DNA of 64,000 nt, from the NCBI GenBank assembly GCA_977018835.1, contig OZ361260.1, positions 124,001-188,000 of the forward strand, given 5' to 3'. The notes below the pieces were generated by a model. It saw nothing but the letters and a program-made list of their open reading frames with translations, was not told the origin of the DNA and did no database searches. The DNA is from Minutocellus sp. GHC0000111 (Eukaryota). The stretch's first letter is position 1. Every line of letters starts with the position of its first letter. The position numbers and the translations under genes were made by a program. Shown one piece after another: positions 36,554-58,745 of the stretch.

Positions 36554-37820
36554 GGTGATTGTAGATCGTCTAATTTGATTGAGTCGATTGTTATATTTGA
36601 GTTTTGAGTCAGTCGTTGTGCTTTTGTGAAGAGGTCCAGGACGAGATCGTTGGTGCAGGACTGAGTTCCGTTGCTGTTTTTCTCATTTTCTCGTTTTCAC
36701 CCTCTGAACCTCTTATTATGAACGCAATGACGTGCCGACGGATCAAATCACTTCACTTGTTGCATGCAGTTCTACAGTTACAACCAGCACCACACTGATA
36801 ATCGCCAATACTTCAGGTCACTGAATTACGATCGATCAGGTAGGCAGGCAGACCTACCGAGTCAAAAAATTCGGCAAGGGCACATGGCTACGCGAGGCCA
36901 TTGATTGCAAAGTCACATCCACGCACACCTTCATCTTCATTTTTACGCCTCCGGTGACAGCCAGTTCTCTGCTGCGCATGGCACCTACCAACTCTGCCGA
37001 TGCCATGCATGGATATATGTGCCGCAGTATGTACTTGCCTCTCGCTCGGACATGTCGTCTTCTGGGCGATCTACCAACCGCCCACACTTTGATCTGATGC
37101 CATGGTCAATCTTTTCTGTCCCAAAGCCGACTAGCTAGGCCTGTCGTACTTGAAATCGAGGGGGGGGGAGAGGCCCACCGCCCACAGACCGCTGCTGCTA
37201 TGCTGGGTGCCGCCATGGCGCGGTTTGACAAATGAGCGCGCGAGCAGAATGAGACTTGTTGCGAACATAACAGTGCACCCGCCAGAGTATGGGTGCGCTT
37301 TCCGTTAGTAGGGAAAGCGATCTCTCGAGCTCAAAAATGACGGGTTCATTATTTTGCTGCATTCCGGAGCAAGGTACGTGATGAAGATTGTTGACGCAGC
37401 CATTGATGCAAAACAGTTTTTGGAGTCTGGTTGGTTGACATGTCTCTAGTCAGTCTCGGCTTGGCAGAGCTGATCGTCGGATAAGCAGCAGCATACCTTG
37501 AAACCTTGTGCTGGAATTTGCAAAACGATCCGACGACCTTTGCCACAACTCCGAGAATGCTGCATGCAAGGTACTCGTAGAGTCGAGTGTACCTCGTGAT
37601 ATGCGAAGAGACTGCTAAAGAAACGCCAACGCGGTTGCTATGTATTCTACTTTGTTCGGTATTGGTTCTGCTATTGGTTTTGCCATCTAACCCACAAGTG
37701 AATATTCCATAATTGTCGTAATCTTTTGTCCAATCAGTCCAACCGTTGCACTTGAGGCCCGAACCGAACTCGACGGGAAGCTCAGCACATACAGTCTAAG
37801 CCACAACTCCAGATAGATAA

Positions 37821-47115: not shown

Positions 47116-50100
47116 ATGACGACTCAGGCCATCTTGCGGACGGCCCTCCGGCGAACAGCAGCATCGGCATCGTGTGGAACAGTCACCGGCGGATCCGCAT
47201 CTTCGTCGGCATTTGGCTTGCTGTCCCGAACCGCCCGTTCGGCTCTCCTGGCTTCTGGTGCTGGAGCTGACATAGCATCAGCCTGTTCGCGAGGATTGCC
47301 CCGCCGATTTAAATCGACGGCGGCCGCTGCCATTGACGATTACGATGATGACTCGACCGCCGCCGTCGCTCAGCCATTGCACTCCAACGAAACATTTTTG
47401 AACGGGACGGGATCGCTTTACGCCGAGCAGATGTACGATGCCTGGTTGGCCGACCCCAACAGCGTCCACGAGACGTGGCGCAATTACTTTGAGAACCTCG
47501 AGCAGGACGTCCCGTACGACGAGGCGGACTACAGCAGCCCTAGCGTCGTCCCCAGCACGGGCGCCGTGGCGTCGGCATCGGCGGCCTCCCTGGCCGGTAC
47601 CGGCGGCAAGTCCGATTCCCTCGGCGTTTCGCATCTCATCCGTGCCTATCAGGTTTCGGGACACATGGCCGCCAACCTCGATCCGTTGGGGTTGCACACC
47701 AAGGAATCCTTCCCCTTCCGCCCGTCCAACTCGCGCGACCCCTCCCATCTGCCCGAGGGCTATCCCGAGGAACTCACCCCGGCGTATCATGGCTTCGACG
47801 GGCCCGGTGATCTGGATCGCAAGCTCAACTTCCGCGGCACGTCCAGCGGCGGCAACAAGGGCTTCCTCGAGGAGCTGGCCGGCATGCCCGGCAAGGTCAC
47901 CCTCCGCTCCATCGTCGACATGCTCCGGAAGACGTACTGCGGCACCCTCGCCGTGGAGTACATGCACATCGGTGATCAGAACAAGTGCAACTGGATCCGA
48001 GAGCGCGTCGAGCAGCCCCGGTGGCTCTCGTACGACAAGGAGAAGAAGCTGCACATCTTCGAGCGTCTGTGCTTTGCCGACACCTTCGAGAACTTCCTCT
48101 CCAACAAGTTCAACACCACCAAGCGGTTCGGTCTGGACGGTGGCGAGGCCATCATTCCCGCCCTCAAGGATGGCATCGACCGTGCGTCCGAGCTGGGCGC
48201 GCACAGTTTCATCATTGGCATGCCCCACCGTGGCCGTCTCAACGTCCTGGCCAACGTGATGCGCAAGCCCATGCCCCTCATCTTCTCCGAGTTCCAGGGC
48301 ACGCACTACGACATCGATGCCCACACCAAGGCCGAGGGTGGAAAGTGGGGCATCAGCGGTGACGTCAAGTACCACTTGGGTTCCAGCATGGACCGTACCT
48401 ACCCCGACGGACGGCAGATCCATCTCAGTTTGGTCGCCAACCCCTCCCACTTGGAGTGCGTCGACCCCGTCGTTGCCGGCAAGACCCGTTTCAAGCAGTA
48501 CTACTGCGGTGATCGCGACGTCGACAAGCAGAACTGCGTCCCCATCCTCCTGCACGGCGATGCCGCCTTCGCCGGTCAGGGCGTGGTGTATGAGACCATG
48601 CAGCTCGCCGGAGTGCCCGACTTCAACGTCGGCGGTACCATTCACGTCATTGTGAACAATCAGATTGGCTTCACCACGAACCCCATCCACTCCCGATCGA
48701 CCCCGTACTGCTCTGACCTTGGTAAGGCCTTCGGTGCTCCCATCTTCCACTGTAACGGTGATGACCCGCTCTCTGTATCGACCGCCCTTGAAACGGCTGT
48801 TGAGTACCGTCACGAGTGGGGAACCGATGTCATCATCGATATGATCTGCTACCGCCGTAACGGCCACAACGAGCTCGATCAGCCCCTCTTCACCCAACCC
48901 AAGCTGTACAAGAAGATACAGAAGCACCCCACCACCCTGGACATTTACGAGAAGCGTCTCATCGAGGATGGCACCGCCACCCCCGAAGAGCTGCAAGAGA
49001 TCCGTGACTTTACTCTCAAGAACTATGAGTTCGAGTTTGAGCAGAGTAAGTCGTACGAGGCCAAGCCGGAGGATTGGCTCAGTTCCCGATGGACCGGCTT
49101 CAAGAGTCCCTCGCAGATGAGCCGCATCCGTCCAACTGGAGTTGATACTGAGACACTGAGGATGATCGGAATGAAGGCTGGAACTGTTCCGGAGGGATTC
49201 AAGCTGCATCGCCAGATGCAGAAGATCTTCAAGGCTCGGAAGGAGATGGCCGAAGAAGGCACTGGTATCGACTGGGGTACAGCCGAAGCTATGGCCTTTG
49301 GTTCTCTCCTAATTGAAGGTAACCACGTACGCATTACTGGTCAGGATGTGCAGCGTGGTACGTTCAGTCATCGCCATGCGGTTGTGAAGGATCAGGATAC
49401 TGAGGAGGAGTACACCCCGCTCAACTCGTTGGCCCAGAACCTGGACATGTCTGCCCCGAAGGAGGAGTTGGTTCGTCCCGATACGCAGGCTGGATTCATT
49501 GCTCGTAACTCAATCCTTTCTGAGTTTGCTGTCCTTGGTTTTGAGCATGGATACAGTTTGGAGAACCCCAACTGCCTTGTCCTTTGGGAGGCTCAATTCG
49601 GTGACTTTGTCAATGGTGCTCAGATCATGATTGATCAGTTTATCGTGGCGGGAGAGGACAAGTGGCTTCGTCAAAGTGGTCTTGTTATGCTCTTGCCTCA
49701 CGGATTCGATGGTCAGGGAGCCGAGCACTCTTCGTGCCGCGTGGAGCGCTTCTTGCAGCAGGTGGACGAAGATCCTCATCACATTCCTAACCTTGCACGG
49801 GATGAGCGTATGCAGGTCCAGCAGTGCAATATGCAAATTGTCAACTGCACCACCCCCGCCAACTACTTCCACTGCCTCCGAAGGCAAATACACCGTGATT
49901 TCCGCAAGCCTTTGGTCGTTGTTTCGCCCAAGAATCTCCTCCGTCACAAGCGATGCGTTTCGTCTCTCGATGATATGGGCCCTGGCAAAATGTTCCAGCG
50001 CGTTATCAATGAGACCGATAGGGACATCTGGGACAACCCGGAGCAGGTCAAGACCCTCGTCTTCTGCTCTGGACAGATTTACTACGAGCTGCTCGCCGAG

Positions 50101-50444
50101 CGCGAGAAGCAGGGTCGGGTCGCACGGATGTGGCCCTTGTGAGGATTGAGCAGATTGCTCCCTTCCCATTCGATCGAATTGCCAGCAATGTCAAGTGGTA
50201 TCCCAATGCTGAGGTCATCTTTGCTCAGCAAGAACCGAAGAACATGGGCGCTTACAGTTACTGCCTGCCTCGCATCATGACGGCGACTCGTGAGATTAAT
50301 GGCGACGAGAAAAGGCCGAGATATGTCGGCCGAGCCGTCAGCGCCGCCCCGGCGACTGGTATGGGCAAGATCCACCAGATGGAGTTCCAGAACATCCTCG
50401 ACGGCGTGTTCGGTAAGCCAAAATCTCTCGGAGTTGACAGTTAG
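47116..50444 (+). CDS. OGDH: 2-oxoglutarate dehydrogenase E1 component, mitochondrial; 5-bp duplication (GGGTC at 50112-50121) splits the ORF
   Basis: KRFGLDGGE, GMPHRGRLN, GDVKYHLG, HGDAAFAGQG, LWEAQFGDF, QQEPKNMG; mitochondrial-type presequence. Deleting one GGGTC yields KQGRTDVALVRIEQ. Confidence 0.97.
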
Positions 50445-50701
50445 AGAAAGACCCGACCGATTCAAGTAGATTAGGTAATAGGCTCTAGATGTACACATTT
50501 ATACAATTGATGTCGTTTGATTATATGTATATATGCCGTCTCGGGCCAAAGGAACCAACTTAGTAGCAGTATTTCAAGTGCTTTGCCGGTTCAATCATTC
50601 ACCACATCATTCACATTACTGGTTGTAGGGTACACATGATCTCACTCCTTCGACCCTTGCGTGCACTATCGATCAGATCCCTTTGCACGGAGTTCAACAA
50701 A

Positions 50702-50755
50702 AAAGATGCGTCAGAAACCGAGCTAAAAGAGACTCGGTATCGTCATTCCACCCCT
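50702..50755 (-). promoter_or_regulatory. Candidate SECIS element (atypical apical loop) in the 3' UTR of the UxxU gene
   Basis: AUGAC-GAUACCGAGU-loop CUCUUUUA-GCUCGGUUUC-UGAC: AUGA/GA quartet, 10-position helix II with 9 pairs, and a flanking AGGGGUG/CAUCUUU helix. Canonical apical AA is absent. Confidence 0.5.
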
Positions 50756-50820
50756 ATCATTGACTGCGCCGCTGGGAGTCATATTCTTCCTTCTATTGAT
50801 ACCTAGTCTGCTGGGCCTAG

Positions 50821-51510
50821 CTAGAGTATAATGCAGTGGCAGCAATTTCTGCAAGCCTGCCCACAGGTAGCTGTCTTGGGCAGTGTTTCTCCGTCGACCA
50901 CATCAAAGGTCTTGCCCTCCCGTTTCATCCTCACACATTGCTCGACCACATTCCAACATGCATCAGGGTTGGGCCTGCCTAGTGATCCTTGGAGATTGGC
51001 GGCTGTCGGGATGCATGCCCAACCCAGTGCAGGCCGATCGCCGACAAATATCAGCACGGCTGGTTGAACGGCTCCGTGTGGATAATTCTTCACGGTCAGT
51101 TCCGGGTCGAGCTCCATCATGCGCGAACAGTCGGTGATGTGAAGGTTAGGGAGGTGGGTGTCTTTGATGTACTGCACGAGTTTGTTCTCATGGTCGCCAA
51201 TGACCGCTGCGTAATTGGACAGATTCCAATTTCGCATGGCGGCACTGGAGGCGTCTTGCCGTTCGCTGGACAGTGCATAAAGTCTGATCGTGCAATTCTT
51301 GCTAGAAACATTGGCGGACGAAACGATGTGATCAAAGGCTGCCAAATAGTCTGGTCAGATGATTCACCAGATTCCTCTGTAAAATATAAAGCCAGTGATT
51401 TCATTCTCTTGCAATTGCTTATCAAACCATGTCTTGATGTTCCCATCGTCACCACCGCCTCGAAGAATTGACAATGCAATTTTCTCAGATTGGTTTACCA
51501 GAAGTTCCAT
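50821..51510 (-). CDS. Peroxiredoxin-like (AhpC/TSA, thioredoxin-fold) candidate selenoprotein with UxxU motif and C-terminal CaaX
   Basis: Continuous frame from ATG 51510: MELL..GFIFYRGIW-TGA-ATC-ATC-TGA-PDYLAAF..LYALSSE..IGD..YPHGAVQPAVLIF..NLQGSLGRP..CIIL-TAG. The TGAs at 51366-51364 and 51357-51355 sit at both Cys positions of FYRGxWCxxC. Confidence 0.8.
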
Positions 51511-52693
51511 TACCTGGTCACCAGCACCACCTGCAGCTGCAGCTGAAGCAGTAGCGGCGGCGGCATCGTGCACTTTCTTGGACTTGGGGGTAAACTGTCA
51601 GTTGGCGCACTTTGGAGCAGTCTCGGTCGTGGTCGCTGGCGGCGGCAAGGGGTTCTCATTGTCATTGTTTTCGCTACCGACACGTCACTCCGGGAAGAGA
51701 ACGTGCCATGAGACAATGACGGAGACCCACTGCCACCACCTACAGGCGTCATCATCCACCACCGCTGGCGTTAAGGACGCAGTACTTCTGTCCTAGACTG
51801 GTACTGTTGTTACTATTGGTATTGCAACAATCCTGACGAGACGTAGAATGGCACGAATGCGTCCTCGCAGTTTCTCCGAGGTCGGTTTTTTTGGCTGCCG
51901 AGCTTTCGTCTGGATGAGAAGAAGATGCGGAGATGGCTCCGACGGCACTTTTGATGAGTTTGTGAGATAGGCTGCAGATGCCGACGACGGCGTCGATTAT
52001 CAATCAGCACATGGCAGGGAGTTGCTGGTGGTATTGCTTGGCTCGAGGCTCTTTGTTGTTCGGTGAAATTGTGAGCACGCCACACAGAGCGCGCGGGAGT
52101 TGGTTCATGGTTGGTCCCGCGGTTCTGGCTCGTGAGAAAATCGACACATACGAGTCGTACATGATGTGTCGAACAACGGTCGTATCCGGCCCACTGTTAT
52201 GTTTGCTCCCCTGTCGCAAACCAAGGAACTGAAAAGAGAGCAGATATCTATACTCTAATAAAAATCCCTTCTGGAAGAGAGCGCATTGGTGATTGTTTTT
52301 TGGGGTCTTTCGGTTTTTCTCCGGCGGTGACCACTCATCAAGCACGAACTACGATTAGCACATCGTGCAAGAAAGGAGATCGTATTGGGAGGAATTGAAT
52401 TGGTTACCTGTCAGGATACGGGACTTGGTTGCATTGCATTCAAGAACATTCCTGAGGTGATTGGCTGTTCTATCTGAGCGTTGGGGGGCGATTGCATTGT
52501 TGTCTTTTGACCCAAGAAACCGAACGATTCAGATCCGACTAAGCTTCGCATTCGGCGAGAAAAGCAAGCAAGCAAGAAAAGCCGGCTGGATTGGTTTGAT
52601 TGATTCAATCCGACCATTTATTTGACAAAACACAACTCAGTAATCCAATTCAAGCACAAACAAAACGAAACGAATACAAGAAGAATCAAGACC

Positions 52694-55342
52694 ATGGGAA
52701 ACAGCAGCTCCTCTTCGTCGAGGTCGTCGTATCCTGGCAACCGAGGGAGCGCTTCGGCCTCACGAAACAATCGCCACACGGCCTCGGCGACGGCTCCCAC
52801 TGCATCTCGAACGCATACGGTGGTCCGCGGGTCGAATGTTCGTGCTGGGAGCAGCAGCACGTCCAGTGGAGGTAATCGGGTGGTAACAACGACTTACACC
52901 ACCGTCCCGCCGTCCGGAGGTGGCGGCGGTAGCTCCCAGCAGCAACCACCCCTCACCGCGCAGACCATCTCTCGACCGGGCGCGTATTCCATATCTCGGA
53001 ACGATGCGGGACCGACGCAAGTCTTTCGTGTAACAGTTCCGGCGGGAGTGGGTCCAAATCAGGAGTTCCAGGTGCACGCTGGATCCCGCGTCGTGCGGGT
53101 TCGGTGTCCTCCCGACGTTCGGCCGGGCCAGTCGCTCCAAATTACCGTCCCACCCGAACCAGTCGTTCGGCAAAATCAGCTAGGCATGGCGCCGCTTACC
53201 AGTGTGACGGGGGAGGGTGGTGGTGCTGTTCGAATGTCGTCTCAGGCCACCCTGACGAACCAACCGGTCATTGAGGCGGAAGAAGCACGACGCCGGCAGG
53301 AGGAGGAGAATCGGATTCGGCAGCAGCAGCAAGGAAGACGCTCGCCTCAGCCAGAAGACGATGATATCAATGCTCGCAATGGCAGCGGTGGAACCTCGAC
53401 GATATCCCCCCCTGATCCACCAAGTGCACCCTCGGCTCCCCCGGCTCCGCAGCAGCAGCAGGCCTACATGGTGGTGGTTCCACCGGGAGTTGTCCCCGGA
53501 TCGCACTTCCGCGTGTTGGTTGAGGGTCGGGAGCTGATGGTGCAATGTCCTCCTACGGCATATCCAGGGATGCAGGTCCGAATCGTCCCCCCAGCACCCG
53601 AGCCGCAGCCCTCATCTGGAGTTTCCGGAGTTACGGATTTGGATCGCCCTCCCGAAGACCTTCCTGTACCTTCGCCCCGTCCCCAACTCACTATGCAAAT
53701 GTTTGAAGTCATTGTCCCGCCGGGAGTTTCATCAAATCAGCCTTTCGCTCTACTAGCAGGCGGTCAGAGAGTTTTGGTAACGTGTCCTCCCAATGCCGGC
53801 CCGGGACAGAAGATCCGATTCCAACTCCCAGTGACACAGCCATCGTCCAAGATGATCGAGAGTCTCAAAATGAACTACGATTCCATCAAGGATGGATGGA
53901 CGAGGACTATCCGTGTCACCGACATGAAGTTCCAGTGGGTGAGGATGGATGAACAGGGCGATGTAGATCTTAGCCCGCGTTTCAACATCGATCGGTCGGC
54001 CTATGTTCGTAGGCTCATATTTCTCGAGGGCAATGATGAGAGGATGCGAACTGGCATGCTCAGCTTGGTTCCAGCATCAGAGGCTGCGGTGGATTCCAAG
54101 GTGACCAGTAAGGATGACGGAAAAGGACGCGAGATTGTTGGATATGCCGATATCATGACCGCCCAGGGCCATGACTTTGCTGAAAAGGCGCAGTGGTTCC
54201 ATGATACCTGTTCGCGGCTGACTGTGGACTGGAATGAGGGCCACATGCGCATTACCGTTCGGCGACAATTCCTACTGGCCGATTCAATCGCGGCTGTTAT
54301 GAGTCTCAGTCGACATGATCTGCGGAAGATATGGCGCTTCGAGTTCATGGGTGAGCCAGGTGTTGATGCTGGTGGTTTGGCCCGAGAGTGGTTTCAGCTG
54401 GTAACAGAACAAATCTTCGACCCCGACAGGGGACTGTGGTTGTCCGAAGCTGGGAACCAGATGAACATGCGCATCAACCCCTTGTCTAAAGTGTCTTGCC
54501 CTGAGGATCATTTGCTCTACTTTCGCTTTCTCGGTCGCGTCATGGGAAAGGCTCTCTTCGACCAACGCCTTGTAGCATGCCACATGACTCGCCACCTGTA
54601 CAAACATATTTTGGGGTGGCCAATTACCTTTGGCGATCTCGAGCTGGTCGATGAAGAGTACTACAAGCAGCTGAAGTCCATCACCAAAATGAAACCAGAC
54701 GAAATTGAATACCTTTACCAAGACTTCACCTGTACGGAAGATGTTTTGGGAGTCAAGGAATCATTCGATCTGATACCAGATGGTGCAAATGTCGAGGTCA
54801 CAAAGGACAATGTGCCTGAATATCTAGAAGCGTGCCTGAAATACAAGATGCTCGATAGAACCAAGCCTCAAATGACGGAACTACTTCTCGGATTCTTTGA
54901 CGTTATCCCCGAGCCTCTTCTCACCGTATTTGACTTCCAAGAGTTGGAATTGCTGATGTGTGGTCTTCCTACAATCGATGTTGATGATTGGGTGTCCAAT
55001 ACTATATATAAGGGGAAATTCGAGTCCAAGCGGGGCTCCCACCAAGTTTGTCGTTGGTTTTGGGAGATAGTCAGAGATGACTTTGATCATGAGATGCGCG
55101 CACGATTGTTGCAGTTTGTTACGGCCACGAGCGGTGTACCCTCCCGAGGATTTTCTGTGCTTCAGGGCAACGACGGCAATATCAAAAAGTTCTGCATCAA
55201 TGGTGTTGATGTCGACACGTGCCTATACCCAAGAGCCCACACATGCTTCAACCGAATCGACCTCCCTGTTTATGACAGCAAGAAAGTTCTCTCCGAGAGA
55301 CTGAAAGTTGCAATATATACTGAAGGTTTCGACATGGAATAG
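52694..55342 (+). CDS. HECT-type E3 ubiquitin ligase with N-myristoylation-like start and three VP-G-rich repeats
   Basis: FMGEPGVDAGGLAREWF, LLQFVT, YPRAHTCFNRIDLP (catalytic Cys), terminal EGFDME; start MGNSSSS. Confidence 0.95.
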   Translation: MGNSSSSSSRSSYPGNRGSASASRNNRHTASATAPTASRTHTVVRGSNVRAGSSSTSSGGNRVVTTTYTTVPPSGGGGGSSQQQPPLTAQTISRPGAYSISRNDAGPTQVFRVTVPAGVGPNQEFQVHAGSRVVRVRCPPDVRPGQSLQITVPPEPVVRQNQLGMAPLTSVTGEGGGAVRMSSQATLTNQPVIEAEEARRRQEEENRIRQQQQGRRSPQPEDDDINARNGSGGTSTISPPDPPSAPSAPPAPQQQQAYMVVVPPGVVPGSHFRVLVEGRELMVQCPPTAYPGMQVRIVPPAPEPQPSSGVSGVTDLDRPPEDLPVPSPRPQLTMQMFEVIVPPGVSSNQPFALLAGGQRVLVTCPPNAGPGQKIRFQLPVTQPSSKMIESLKMNYDSIKDGWTRTIRVTDMKFQWVRMDEQGDVDLSPRFNIDRSAYVRRLIFLEGNDERMRTGMLSLVPASEAAVDSKVTSKDDGKGREIVGYADIMTAQGHDFAEKAQWFHDTCSRLTVDWNEGHMRITVRRQFLLADSIAAVMSLSRHDLRKIWRFEFMGEPGVDAGGLAREWFQLVTEQIFDPDRGLWLSEAGNQMNMRINPLSKVSCPEDHLLYFRFLGRVMGKALFDQRLVACHMTRHLYKHILGWPITFGDLELVDEEYYKQLKSITKMKPDEIEYLYQDFTCTEDVLGVKESFDLIPDGANVEVTKDNVPEYLEACLKYKMLDRTKPQMTELLLGFFDVIPEPLLTVFDFQELELLMCGLPTIDVDDWVSNTIYKGKFESKRGSHQVCRWFWEIVRDDFDHEMRARLLQFVTATSGVPSRGFSVLQGNDGNIKKFCINGVDVDTCLYPRAHTCFNRIDLPVYDSKKVLSERLKVAIYTEGFDME

Positions 55343-55960: not shown

Positions 55961-57935
55961 GCGGAGGGCAGACCAATCAATCCCTAGCACTCGAGCATCG
56001 ACCTAAATATGACCGTTGGGATCGATGACGTGCTAAGTTGGAGCCATGAGCCACAGTCGCTCATATTTAATCTGTTACGTAGCTGATTGATATCCACCAA
56101 TCAGCTGTACCTTAGCACGAGTACCTGGTCGAGTATAGGCCACATCAATACAGCTACGTGCAGACTTCCGTCCCGCACCTCGATCGGCATTCATGGCTGG
56201 CGCAAATAAAAATTGATGGTCGGTCGGCCGTCTGGTCACGACTGAAGATTTCCAGCTAGCTCCTGTGATTAATCACCCCAGGAAATTTCTATTGCGTACC
56301 AATGTGGCATAACATGGTTCAAGATGCAATCGCTGGGCGTTCGGTTGAAGTTGTGATGCGCAGATGCACAGATGCACAGATGCGCAGATGCGATCGATGC
56401 ATGGCGGATTGTCTGTTGTCGTCATCCGTCCGTTGTCCGACCAGCACAGCTCACTCAACTCCACCAATCGCATTGGCATTTGAGTTTGCGTCACTGCTGA
56501 TGTAATCTCAAATAAAAGCGCTCCGCAACATCACAATGCTACCCAATGACGAAAACTCCCAAACCCCCTGCTGAACGAGCCCATCGTGCTCCACCTCCCA
56601 AACGCTTGATGATGTCAGTCAAGCAAGAAGTTTCGGACGAACGAAACATGAAGCGCACGGACGGAGCAGGCATCGAGTGTGGCATGGTCGCAAGATGTTT
56701 CATTGCTCTACTGCCCCCACCGATGACAGGATTGGCGTTAATGGCACGTATTTTGGCGTTAACAGGCATTAGATTAATGATGACTTGATAGCATTTCATC
56801 ATGCAGTCGAACAAACAAAAAACAAGAAGAAGAATGCAGTCAGTGACTGACTTGCCCAAAAAAATTCATTGCTTAAGCACTGTATATTTTCTAACCCTAA
56901 CCCAAACCCCGACAACGATGCTAGATCTAGATCTACATGCTTTTATGTAGACCAGGCGCATGTTTACATGCATCAACAGGCTCAAGACTGCCGACCGGTA
57001 ACTTTGGGCCGGCACCGGTGCGTTGGCGTCACGCACAACCTGTCTGTCATCCGGTCCTGAGCCCCATCATTTTCTCCCGGATTATAAAAGGCTTTCCCCC
57101 CTACACTTATATTTTCTTGTGCTTGTTTCGCACTTGTTTTTGGCGTTCAAACCTCACTTTGACTCGTCGCCATCGCCCACTCTTTCACTGCATGCCTGAC
57201 AGCCAGAGCCATGATTGTTGAACATGATCTTGCCATCGTCGTCGTCGCCAGTGATGTGCACGGCCGCCTCTCATCGCGGCAGCGGCCGCCGCTGATCGTT
57301 CTTCTGGCTCTTCTCGCTCCCGTCGAGCGCATGCTGCCGCCTCGGACACTCCATCGTGGCGCTGGTTCGCTTTTGAGCTCAACGACTCAACCAACTCTCC
57401 CTCCTTCACTAGGCCAGCATTCGACCTCCACTTTCACCACCGTTCCATGCCGGGGAGACGATGGCCGCCGTCGTCGCCATAACCGCCACCATGTCACCAC
57501 CACCGCCATGACTCGGTCGGTCCGGTCCTTCGAGTGGTTGTCCTCTCCTCCCTTCCACAGTTGGACAGTTTGGCCATGCGGTTCCACGCTGGCGTTCAAC
57601 GCGCACGTACGTTCCGTTGATTGTGGATGTTCATGGTAAGTTTTGCTTACGCAATAATTACGAAACATCGATGAAACGGAAAAACTGCTGATCGATTGGA
57701 AGAATGATGGAAAGACGGCACGATGTGGAGCATCTTTTCGCATTGCTTGCATCTGCATCTGGCGCATTCATTTCACTCATCTTGCTCCCTCCACTGTGTT
57801 CCGACACACTCTTTTGTCCACATAATATCAACAGACCAGTCATCCACCAGACCATTGATTCGTCCGAGGGCATCTTGTATCTTTGCTTCCTTTTCAACAT
57901 GTAAGTTTTGCGGCTTGTTCTTTTTTTTTTTTCAG

Positions 57936-58745
57936 CACATCTTGTGGTGTTTCGGCGGCATTTTTTGGAACGCCGAGTCCTTCTACCGGTCACTGGCGCG
58001 CAACCCACAAGTGAAATTCGTCGGCGATGACAGGCAGCAGTGCCTCGACCGGTTCTTTGGTGGCCTGTCCACTGCAAGCAAGGAGGCGGTGGAGGAGAAG
58101 GAAGAAATCGCCACGGCGTGTGTCGACAAGGACCTGGGGTCAACAATTGTCCGTGGGAACTTTACCAACAACATGCACGCCGCTCTGTCCCTCATCGAAC
58201 AAAACAAGACAATGTGGGAAAACAGAAAAGTGTGCGGTTGGTGCCACAACGTGTTGAACGGACACCGACACTGGCGCAAAGCTCCTCTCCACCCCTGGCA
58301 GGTAGCGCTGCTCAAGGAGCACCGATTCCATGAGCGCATGGAAGAGCACCAAAGTGCGGAGAACAGGAGCATTCGCGCTCAAGCTGGTCATCGCCAGCGC
58401 ACATCCAGCAACGATGGCGAGTTCATCGGCAACGTAAGAAAGTTAGCCAACCACCTCCGAAGTCCAGGCGCTGGGCGAAAGAAGTGGAAACATCCCTCTA
58501 AAAATGCCAAAGACCCTGTTGAAAGAGACTTAGCATTTTTTGTTAGGGCCGTCCGGCAGGGGAAGAAAACAAGTGGAGGGGAAGATGGCAAAAGGCACGG
58601 ACACAAGATTGCTCCAATCCGCATGAAGTACCTCGAGGCCATCAACTTTGAGTTTGTTGGACAACCAGGCAAACCCACTTTTTGCGAGCCATTTGAGGAA
58701 GGCTGGGAGGACAAGCTTCTTGCCAAGTTGAACGCCTCCAACTGA
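57936..58745 (+). CDS. Helicase-associated (HA)-like domain protein, terminal exon; upstream exons unclear
   Basis: Poly-T/CAG acceptor ending at 57935. P..DPVERDLAFFVRAVRQ..IRMKYLEAINFEF resembles the HA-domain consensus. Confidence 0.5.
   Translation, partial: HILWCFGGIFWNAESFYRSLARNPQVKFVGDDRQQCLDRFFGGLSTASKEAVEEKEEIATACVDKDLGSTIVRGNFTNNMHAALSLIEQNKTMWENRKVCGWCHNVLNGHRHWRKAPLHPWQVALLKEHRFHERMEEHQSAENRSIRAQAGHRQRTSSNDGEFIGNVRKLANHLRSPGAGRKKWKHPSKNAKDPVERDLAFFVRAVRQGKKTSGGEDGKRHGHKIAPIRMKYLEAINFEFVGQPGKPTFCEPFEEGWEDKLLAKLNASN

Follow-up and report, generated by a model that had tools for sequence, protein, structure and literature searches.

The window, by which we mean the whole 64,000-nucleotide stretch of DNA that was analysed, is intron-poor eukaryote DNA with HECT, SET and MYND genes. 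Its minus strand carries a putative selenoprotein gene, in which a conserved upstream ORF (uORF), a second start, a CxxU segment, an AhpC-like enzyme with a UxxU motif and a compact 3' UTR hairpin follow one another. TGA terminates 14 of the 25 long ORFs in the window and is found at 0 of 14,405 internal codons, a second count that holds partly by construction; since the codon works as a regular stop in the rest of the window, we rejected its general reassignment. Eighteen runs (marine, sponge metagenome) matched the stretch, and 8 of them were aligned. Cluster names said nothing useful on taxonomy; one cluster member comes from a transcriptome set of marine microbial eukaryotes, and a diatom-like host is a guess. 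RNA contigs from two studies cover the gene with no joint (X1, 50091-52058; X3, 50515-52052; X5, 50586-52058). Single RNA contigs thus give a minimal transcript of 50586..52058 with no intron seen, which we place on the minus strand from its ORFs. Since the contigs are single pieces, the gene and the hairpin lie on one unspliced RNA-derived contig. The initial annotation had called for evidence that the hairpin is in the mRNA; X1, X3 and X5 do run past it, but they show neither strand nor poly(A) site.

Downstream lies a convergent gene for 2-oxoglutarate dehydrogenase. At position 50112 (plus strand; ORF 47116-50142) the window has 5 extra bases relative to the X1, X3 and X15 contigs. These bases shift the dehydrogenase frame, whose natural C-terminus is found in another frame running to ~50444, and the excess is probably an assembly error in the window. 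We set aside the hairpin as part of the dehydrogenase 3' UTR: that gene stops near 50444, and the X3 and X5 contigs break between the selenoprotein and dehydrogenase genes, which is a weak hint only. On the other side, a HECT ubiquitin ligase gene (52694-55342, plus strand) diverges from the selenoprotein gene, and its RNA contigs begin ~165 nt from the end of the selenoprotein contigs.

The main ORF (50821..51510, minus strand) encodes a protein of 229 amino acids that relatives, a predicted model, Foldseek and motifs identify as AhpC-like with a thioredoxin fold. It contains FYRGIW-U-II-U-P and ends in CIIL, which is CaaX-like. The UxxU redox motif, TGA-ATC-ATC-TGA, occupies codons 49 and 52 (51355..51366, minus strand). 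Pfam returned no match to the window protein itself, and a PDB sequence-profile search gave nothing under E 0.7. At E up to 0.001 there were 99 relatives, which have FYRGxW-CxxC, CxxD or similar at the TGA site; AhpC-TSA (PF00578) was matched at E up to 0.01 by 23 of the 27 relatives scanned. The predicted model has a pLDDT of 92.7, its best Foldseek matches are AhpC and peroxiredoxins (E 4.6e-6), and UxxU sits in it at the turn from a strand into a helix, the arrangement of a thioredoxin fold. A metagenome scan confirmed 4 related loci (L001 to L004) among 151 pattern matches, with protein identities to the window of 75, 40, 40 and 35%. Both TGAs (TGA-x-x-TGA) are retained in all four. Pattern matches in viral contigs (0/10 and 0/47) and in prokaryotic genomes (0/14) yielded no related locus. 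Mismatches between the coding sequences of the window and L001 fall 27, 18 and 89 times on codon positions 1, 2 and 3.

The nearest described proteins are the AhpC-like selenoproteins of sponges, which have UxxC in the accessible portions of PMC3473315 and of the S6 alignment of PMC3753652. Compared by eye with those portions, the window protein shares FYRGxW-U, GxVQPAV (VQP) and W..P...N..G...RP.P..W (RP.P..W), and Amphimedon copy c ends in CTII, CaaX-like as here (PMC3753652). In contrast to the sponge UxxC, the window enzyme has UxxU, together with CxxU in an N-terminal extension. The xxU-P motifs of the window's clade were not seen in the AhpC rows of supplement S6 of PMC3753652, as far as that supplement was available. 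The sponge SECIS elements are of the form GUGA_AA, and the accessible text of PMC3473315 describes no uORF. Judged from sequence, the enzyme is a sponge-type AhpC-like selenoprotein with UxxU in place of the CxxC or UxxC of its relatives.

Close database proteins (12 of 316 candidates, one of them 99% identical to the window) all start after UxxU, as they would if gene prediction had run into a stop codon at that site. All 12 also end in C-x-x-x, which we take to be a prenylation signal. The enzyme is predicted to be a prenylated, membrane-anchored diselenide oxidoreductase. Among the relatives, three proteins of 42-46 aa break off at FYRG(I/L)W, and one protein carries W at each of the two Sec sites. 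In a quick family tree of 70 rows, from which sequences shorter than 125 aa and most of the long fusion proteins were omitted, 37 rows end in C-x-x-x, and many rows outside the window's clade are also without the N-terminal motif. This pattern suggests that the family may hold many more unannotated Sec-containing, possibly prenylated members.

Two further relatives are noted here. P0014, seemingly called without splicing, has an insert directly behind FYRGRW and then IMCGPY; it is perhaps a UxxC member with an intron. P0016, a CxxD protein, has an N-terminal extension with CLMAC, possibly the Cys counterpart of the CxxU segment.

The hairpin (50702..50755, minus strand) is compact and resembles a type I SECIS. 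Helix I pairs 50755-50749 with 50708-50702 (7 bp), and the GA of the internal loop is at 50748-50747. The kink-turn core sets AUGAC (50746-50742) opposite UGAC (50713-50710). Helix II pairs 50741-50732 with 50723-50714 over 10 positions, including one U.U, and is closed by the 8-nt U-rich apical loop CUCUUUUA (50731-50724), which has no AA. All segments quoted in the initial annotation (core, GA and both helices) are present on the minus strand from 50755 to 50702, and its proposed AUGA/GA kink-turn with a ~10-bp upper helix and a lower helix is exactly the two-helix fold that RNAfold gives. Its placement on the right strand, about 70 nt downstream of the UxxU gene, is likewise correct: the hairpin starts 65 nt past the TAG of ORF 51510-50821, and lies 608 nt downstream of the second TGA.

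How unusual is this structure in its own DNA? RNAfold predicts it with the core open at -19.8 kcal/mol (z -2.17), and 5 of 200 shuffles were as stable, so that folding stability taken alone is modest. A descriptor of the core plus two helices, composed after the hairpin had been seen, has a single strict match across the two strands of the window, namely this hairpin, against a mean of 0.13 in a control of 30 shuffled windows. The sequence ATGTGCTGA occurs in 3 copies where 1.0 is expected, a count reached in 10 of 100 shuffles; the other two copies (37782-37790 and 57932-57940, minus strand) were rejected as further elements because this count is within chance. ARAGORN found no tRNA in the window, and Rfam found no other credible family in the region, the loci or the whole window.

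Standard searches miss the hairpin, as had been anticipated. Rfam (RF00031) gave no SECIS match at E up to 10 at the hairpin, in the whole window or in the 4 related loci, so the hairpin falls outside the Rfam family in its modelled form, and the window element fails all four published SECISearch1 patterns. By a hand count of lengths, it passes the loop- and stem-length filters of SECISearch3. In the accessible parts of the sources, the type I consensus has a helix II of 11-16 bp with a G-C first pair (PMC2647825, PMC2761289), an apical AA (or CC) is typical and not universal (PMC2647825, 10.1101/314781), CC variants are known (PMC2761289), and the SECISearch3 filter accepts a helix II of 7-15 (PMC3753652).

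Measured against that partial description, the present element shares with type I SECIS its 3' UTR position, helix I, the internal loop, an unpaired A before UGAN and tandem G.A pairs. It differs in a helix II of ~10 bp with a mismatch or bulge, under the 11-16 bp consensus and inside the 7-15 filter, and in core strands that lie 23-31 nt apart in all five copies. It also differs in a 3' core that reads UGAC in the five aligned copies versus the consensus KGAW. AA or CC at 10-13 nt above the core is absent in the window, L001 and L004 (3 of 5), whereas L002 and L003 have AA at offset 13, late in the loop. The claim of an apical loop without AA therefore stands for three of the five loops and not for the other two. 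Nor is the feature new, since it has been reported in fungi: as far as the accessible text goes, Gonapodya prolifera has two AhpC SECIS elements without apical adenines (10.1101/314781). That case agrees with ours in an AA-less element behind an AhpC-family gene but comes from a different lineage, a fungus, and is likened to it by the loss of AA alone, not by compactness. Compactness is the more consistent oddity of the five copies than the missing apical AA.

The related loci carry the hairpin in the same architecture. GA-AUGRC-G, a short helix and C-UGAC are found in 4/4 loci, 595-598 nt past the second TGA, and hence in every locus that keeps its TGAs, a conservation on which the initial annotation had staked its reading. 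An unpaired purine precedes the UGA/GA core, which is AUGAC/UGAC in the window and 3 of the 4 loci. The first pair of helix II is G-C in 5/5 copies, matching the published consensus; helix I has 6-8 bp in the loci by RNAfold, and no alignment of it is possible across subclades. In the hairpin alignment 18 of 76 columns are invariant, almost all within the core. Identity to L001 is 45/53 in the hairpin, 40/65 in the preceding UTR, 530/690 in the coding sequence and 216/281 in the 5' leader, and the core is the most conserved stretch of the 3' UTR. Among the matches listed, related contigs of X8 and X11 have UGAU as the 3' core, which fits KGAW, and a G-U in place of an A-U in helix II; one X8 contig among them aligns on either side of 50704-50819 and not across it. 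The X3 and X5 allele at 50751 opens one G-U pair of helix I.

The proposed check for covariation in orthologous 3' UTRs gave no significant signal. With five sequences from about three lineages, the covariation score of helix II was matched by 40 of 500 shuffles and is not significant. Double changes were as many in 265 of 500 shuffles, 68% of cells are paired, and there is a single compensatory pair (C-G to U-A). Two copies have defects: L002 reads AUGGC at the normally invariant core (1264-1268; G for A), and in L004 a TAG interrupts the enzyme ORF (667-669). These are either sequence errors or decaying copies. Taken together, TGAs at the CxxC of the relatives, kept in 4/4 loci and accompanied in each by the hairpin, make a variant SECIS the best reading. 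We hold with high confidence that the hairpin is a SECIS; the comparative evidence makes it very likely a compact element of an atypical type already known, and a candidate for Sec insertion.

A third in-frame TGA lies farther upstream in the main frame. It belongs to a CxxU segment (CANU; 51598..51609, minus strand) 30 codons upstream of the main ATG, with the equivalents CTNU in L001, CLEU in L002 and L003, and FLEU in L004. Across the 9 codons that follow CxxU, all 4 changes between the window and L001 are synonymous. L001 to L004 each have an in-frame ATG 12-25 codons upstream of CxxU. Comparison of the leaders places a second start at 51750..51755 (minus strand; ATGs at 51755 and 51752), where it overlaps with the uORF's final UGAs. 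In the four loci this second AUG shares its frame with CxxU and the main ORF; in the window it does not, and there it begins a frame of 80-81 codons whose stop, a TAA (51512-51510), overlaps the main ATG (TAATG). Read as a splice site, these bases (51512-51508, minus strand) also make a good donor, CAG/GTAATG, without RNA support. A related X8 contig, among the matches listed, has gaps of -2, +1 and +2 (net +1) that would put the second AUG in frame. Four runs have no indel there, so the frame break of the window is not an assembly slip. Because its second AUG is out of frame, the window organism would need a second restart, at UAAUG, or a rare splice lost from the contigs, or it has a decaying leader. 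This lowers confidence in the switch described below for the window organism, not in the family pattern.

What lies ahead of the second start is a uORF of 90 codons (51740..52012, minus strand) that begins at the first AUG of the RNA contigs, reads Met-Cys-UGA-LIID, has UGA at codons 3, 87 and 88, and ends in TAG. The first AUG opens ATG TGC TGA both in the window (52012) and in each of the 3 loci long enough to include it (L001, L002 and L004); L003 is cut before the uORF start, and its uORF end is the same as that of L002. Read through UGA, the uORF has 90, 90, 64 and 73 codons in the window and the three loci. It starts MCU-(L/V)-(I/L)-I-(D/E), with conservative changes after the UGA (L/V/L, I/I/L, I/I/I, D/E/E). 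The only other UGAs of the uORF sit in its last 2-8 codons (4/4). In 4/4 cases the second AUG is in the -1 frame, and the uORF's TAG comes 7-10 nt after it. A purine stands at -3 of both AUGs, for the first AUG in 4/4.

Between the window and L001, uORF mismatches fall 13, 11 and 27 times on codon positions 1, 2 and 3 (27/51 third, p 0.003), and seven gaps sum to zero frame change, so that the length stays at 90 codons. The leader is as conserved as the coding sequence, which the CxxU segment and the uORF explain. In the quick tree of 70 rows, the uORF carriers form two separate subclades, window/L001 and L002/L004; this separation, on a base of about three lineages, implies that the arrangement is old. 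The marks of a regulatory uORF are thus found here, namely the first AUG, a conserved position, a conserved frame and the codon pattern, and we consider it likely that the uORF is read through its first UGA. We rejected a programmed frameshift joining the uORF and the enzyme: no slippery site was seen, and the second AUG is conserved in 5/5. A long stem (51757-51707, minus strand; ~293-340 in L001) spans the last uORF UGA together with the second AUG in two copies, the window and L001, whereas neither L002 nor L004 shows it clearly; such a stem could help read-through or restart.

Conservation and presence in unspliced RNA contigs hold for five in-frame UGA positions. The hairpin probably serves all five, in two ORFs: those of UxxU, that of CxxU and two in the uORF. 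The initial annotation's variant SECIS is upheld by 4/4 loci, whereas its tally of two UGAs is probably too low. Our overall best explanation, to which we give an even chance, is that a compact SECIS recodes UGA along the whole mRNA and that the Met-Cys-UGA uORF is a selenium sensor setting enzyme output. In established Sec insertion, a SECIS recruits SBP2, eEFSec and Sec-tRNA. Here SBP2 would bind the kink-turn core, and Sec insertion would be raised at every UGA on the mRNA. Ribosomes would initiate at the first AUG. With scarce Sec-tRNA they would stop after two codons, scan on for 176-251 nt and restart at the second AUG. With ample Sec-tRNA, Sec would be inserted, 60-90 codons would be translated, and termination at or 7-10 nt past the second AUG would mean that the latter is mostly missed.

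A UGA near the uORF end would make shut-off dependent on two insertions. Since the enzyme itself needs two or three Sec, its output would be highest at an intermediate selenium supply. In a toy model whose restart rates were assumed, meant as an illustration of shape only, this peak falls at an insertion chance of ~0.7-0.8. We hold the switch logic in this form to be a tentative proposal that falls slightly short of an even chance. The full statement, a translational switch in which one AA-less SECIS serves five UGAs in two overlapping frames and the Sec-tRNA pool sets the output of a triple-Sec prenylated enzyme, is more tentative by a further shade.

Could the uORF instead encode a product of its own? 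The mRNA would then specify two proteins, the uORF yielding a small selenoprotein (Met-Cys-Sec start, amphipathic first helix) and the enzyme arising by restart at the overlapping second AUG; both would rise with selenium, and the SECIS reading would be the same. Conservation at the amino-acid level directly after the uORF UGA is what such a protein would give, and the conserved N-terminal residues fit a functional peptide as well as a sensor. The second AUG is always at most 14 nt from a UGA and at most 10 nt from the stop, and an AUGA overlap is present in the window and L001, resembling viral stop-start coupling. Past ~25 residues, however, the peptide turns low-complexity and can no longer be aligned from one subclade to the other (24-30% identity), and Pfam has no match to it. 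A protein search with the four uORF peptides gave a single match in 102 candidates, a near copy of L001, so that no Cys homolog was seen. We consider this account unlikely.

We think it equally unlikely that the SECIS serves only the enzyme, with its two or three UGAs, the leader holding a two-codon Met-Cys-stop uORF and owing its other conservation to RNA structure or a promoter. A fraction of 0.11-0.50 of shuffles contains open frames of 61-87 codons, so that uORF length alone is weak evidence; the strong stem over the second AUG in the window and L001 would also fit, as would the window's own leader, which is frame-broken downstream. Yet the third-position bias and the frame-keeping gaps follow the uORF frame, codon changes are conservative across subclades, and the frame relation and spacing to the second AUG are the same in 4/4.

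It is very improbable that the leader contains one or more introns, with CUGAC...YAG at the uORF end as branch point and acceptor and a 53-nt GT-AG segment restoring the frame. CTGAC does lie 15-20 nt before TAG in L002 to L004, and the window has a GT-AG stretch of the right length class at ~51690-51638. Against this, there is no joint in the X1, X3 and X5 contigs or in the X8, X11 and X14 pieces over the leader among the matches listed, and the four leaders have no GT donor at a common offset that would restore the frame. Since rare forms are lost from contigs, splicing of the leader in a minor form could escape them.

Least probable of all is that the hairpin arose as a fold by chance, or is a kink-turn bound by some other L7Ae-family protein, with TGAs that are pseudogene stops or Cys/Trp codons: the missing Rfam SECIS match in window and loci, the z of only -2.17, the lack of AA or CC at 10-13 nt and the defects in L002 (core) and L004 (TAG) would suit it, but both TGAs are at catalytic cysteine sites in 5/5, coding changes concentrate on third positions, TGA is a stop elsewhere in the window, and the core is the best-conserved part of the 3' UTR.

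In GCN4, ATF4 and metabolite-sensing uORFs, a short, restart-permissive uORF versus a long, overlapping one decides access to the main start. Here, by comparison, a single uORF would turn from short to long by Sec insertion at UGA, and the input would be Sec-tRNA rather than the eIF2 ternary complex or a stalling metabolite. SelL reportedly forms a diselenide. In the parts of the sources at hand, UxxU is known in SELENOL and some SELENOW (PMC3473315, PMC7539508). These likewise place two Sec in a thioredoxin-type motif, and they indicate that closely spaced UGAs can be served; they are other protein families, matched by the UxxU motif alone, whereas the nearest relatives here are AhpC-like. 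UxxU in the AhpC-like family was not seen in the accessible portions of the literature searched, in which an algal selenoproteome survey may use another name. No title or abstract describing a SECIS-dependent uORF was found in the literature searched, a body that most subscription papers fall outside. AA-less SECIS elements, AhpC-like selenoproteins and UxxU are, by the same partial sources, already known. The leader suggests a form of selenium-responsive control that may be undescribed.

Taken alone, the hairpin adds a compact member to the known class of AA-less SECIS elements. Rfam and the SECISearch1 patterns miss such elements, so the selenoproteomes of marine microbial eukaryotes are probably undercounted. 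For selenoprotein mRNAs, a known point of action of selenium is UGA decoding within the main ORF; if true, a uORF driven by a SECIS would be a dedicated selenium sensor upstream of the gene. The system bears on whether a 3' SECIS acts on uORFs, on how one minimal AA-less SECIS serves several UGAs, and on how plankton ration a scarce trace element.
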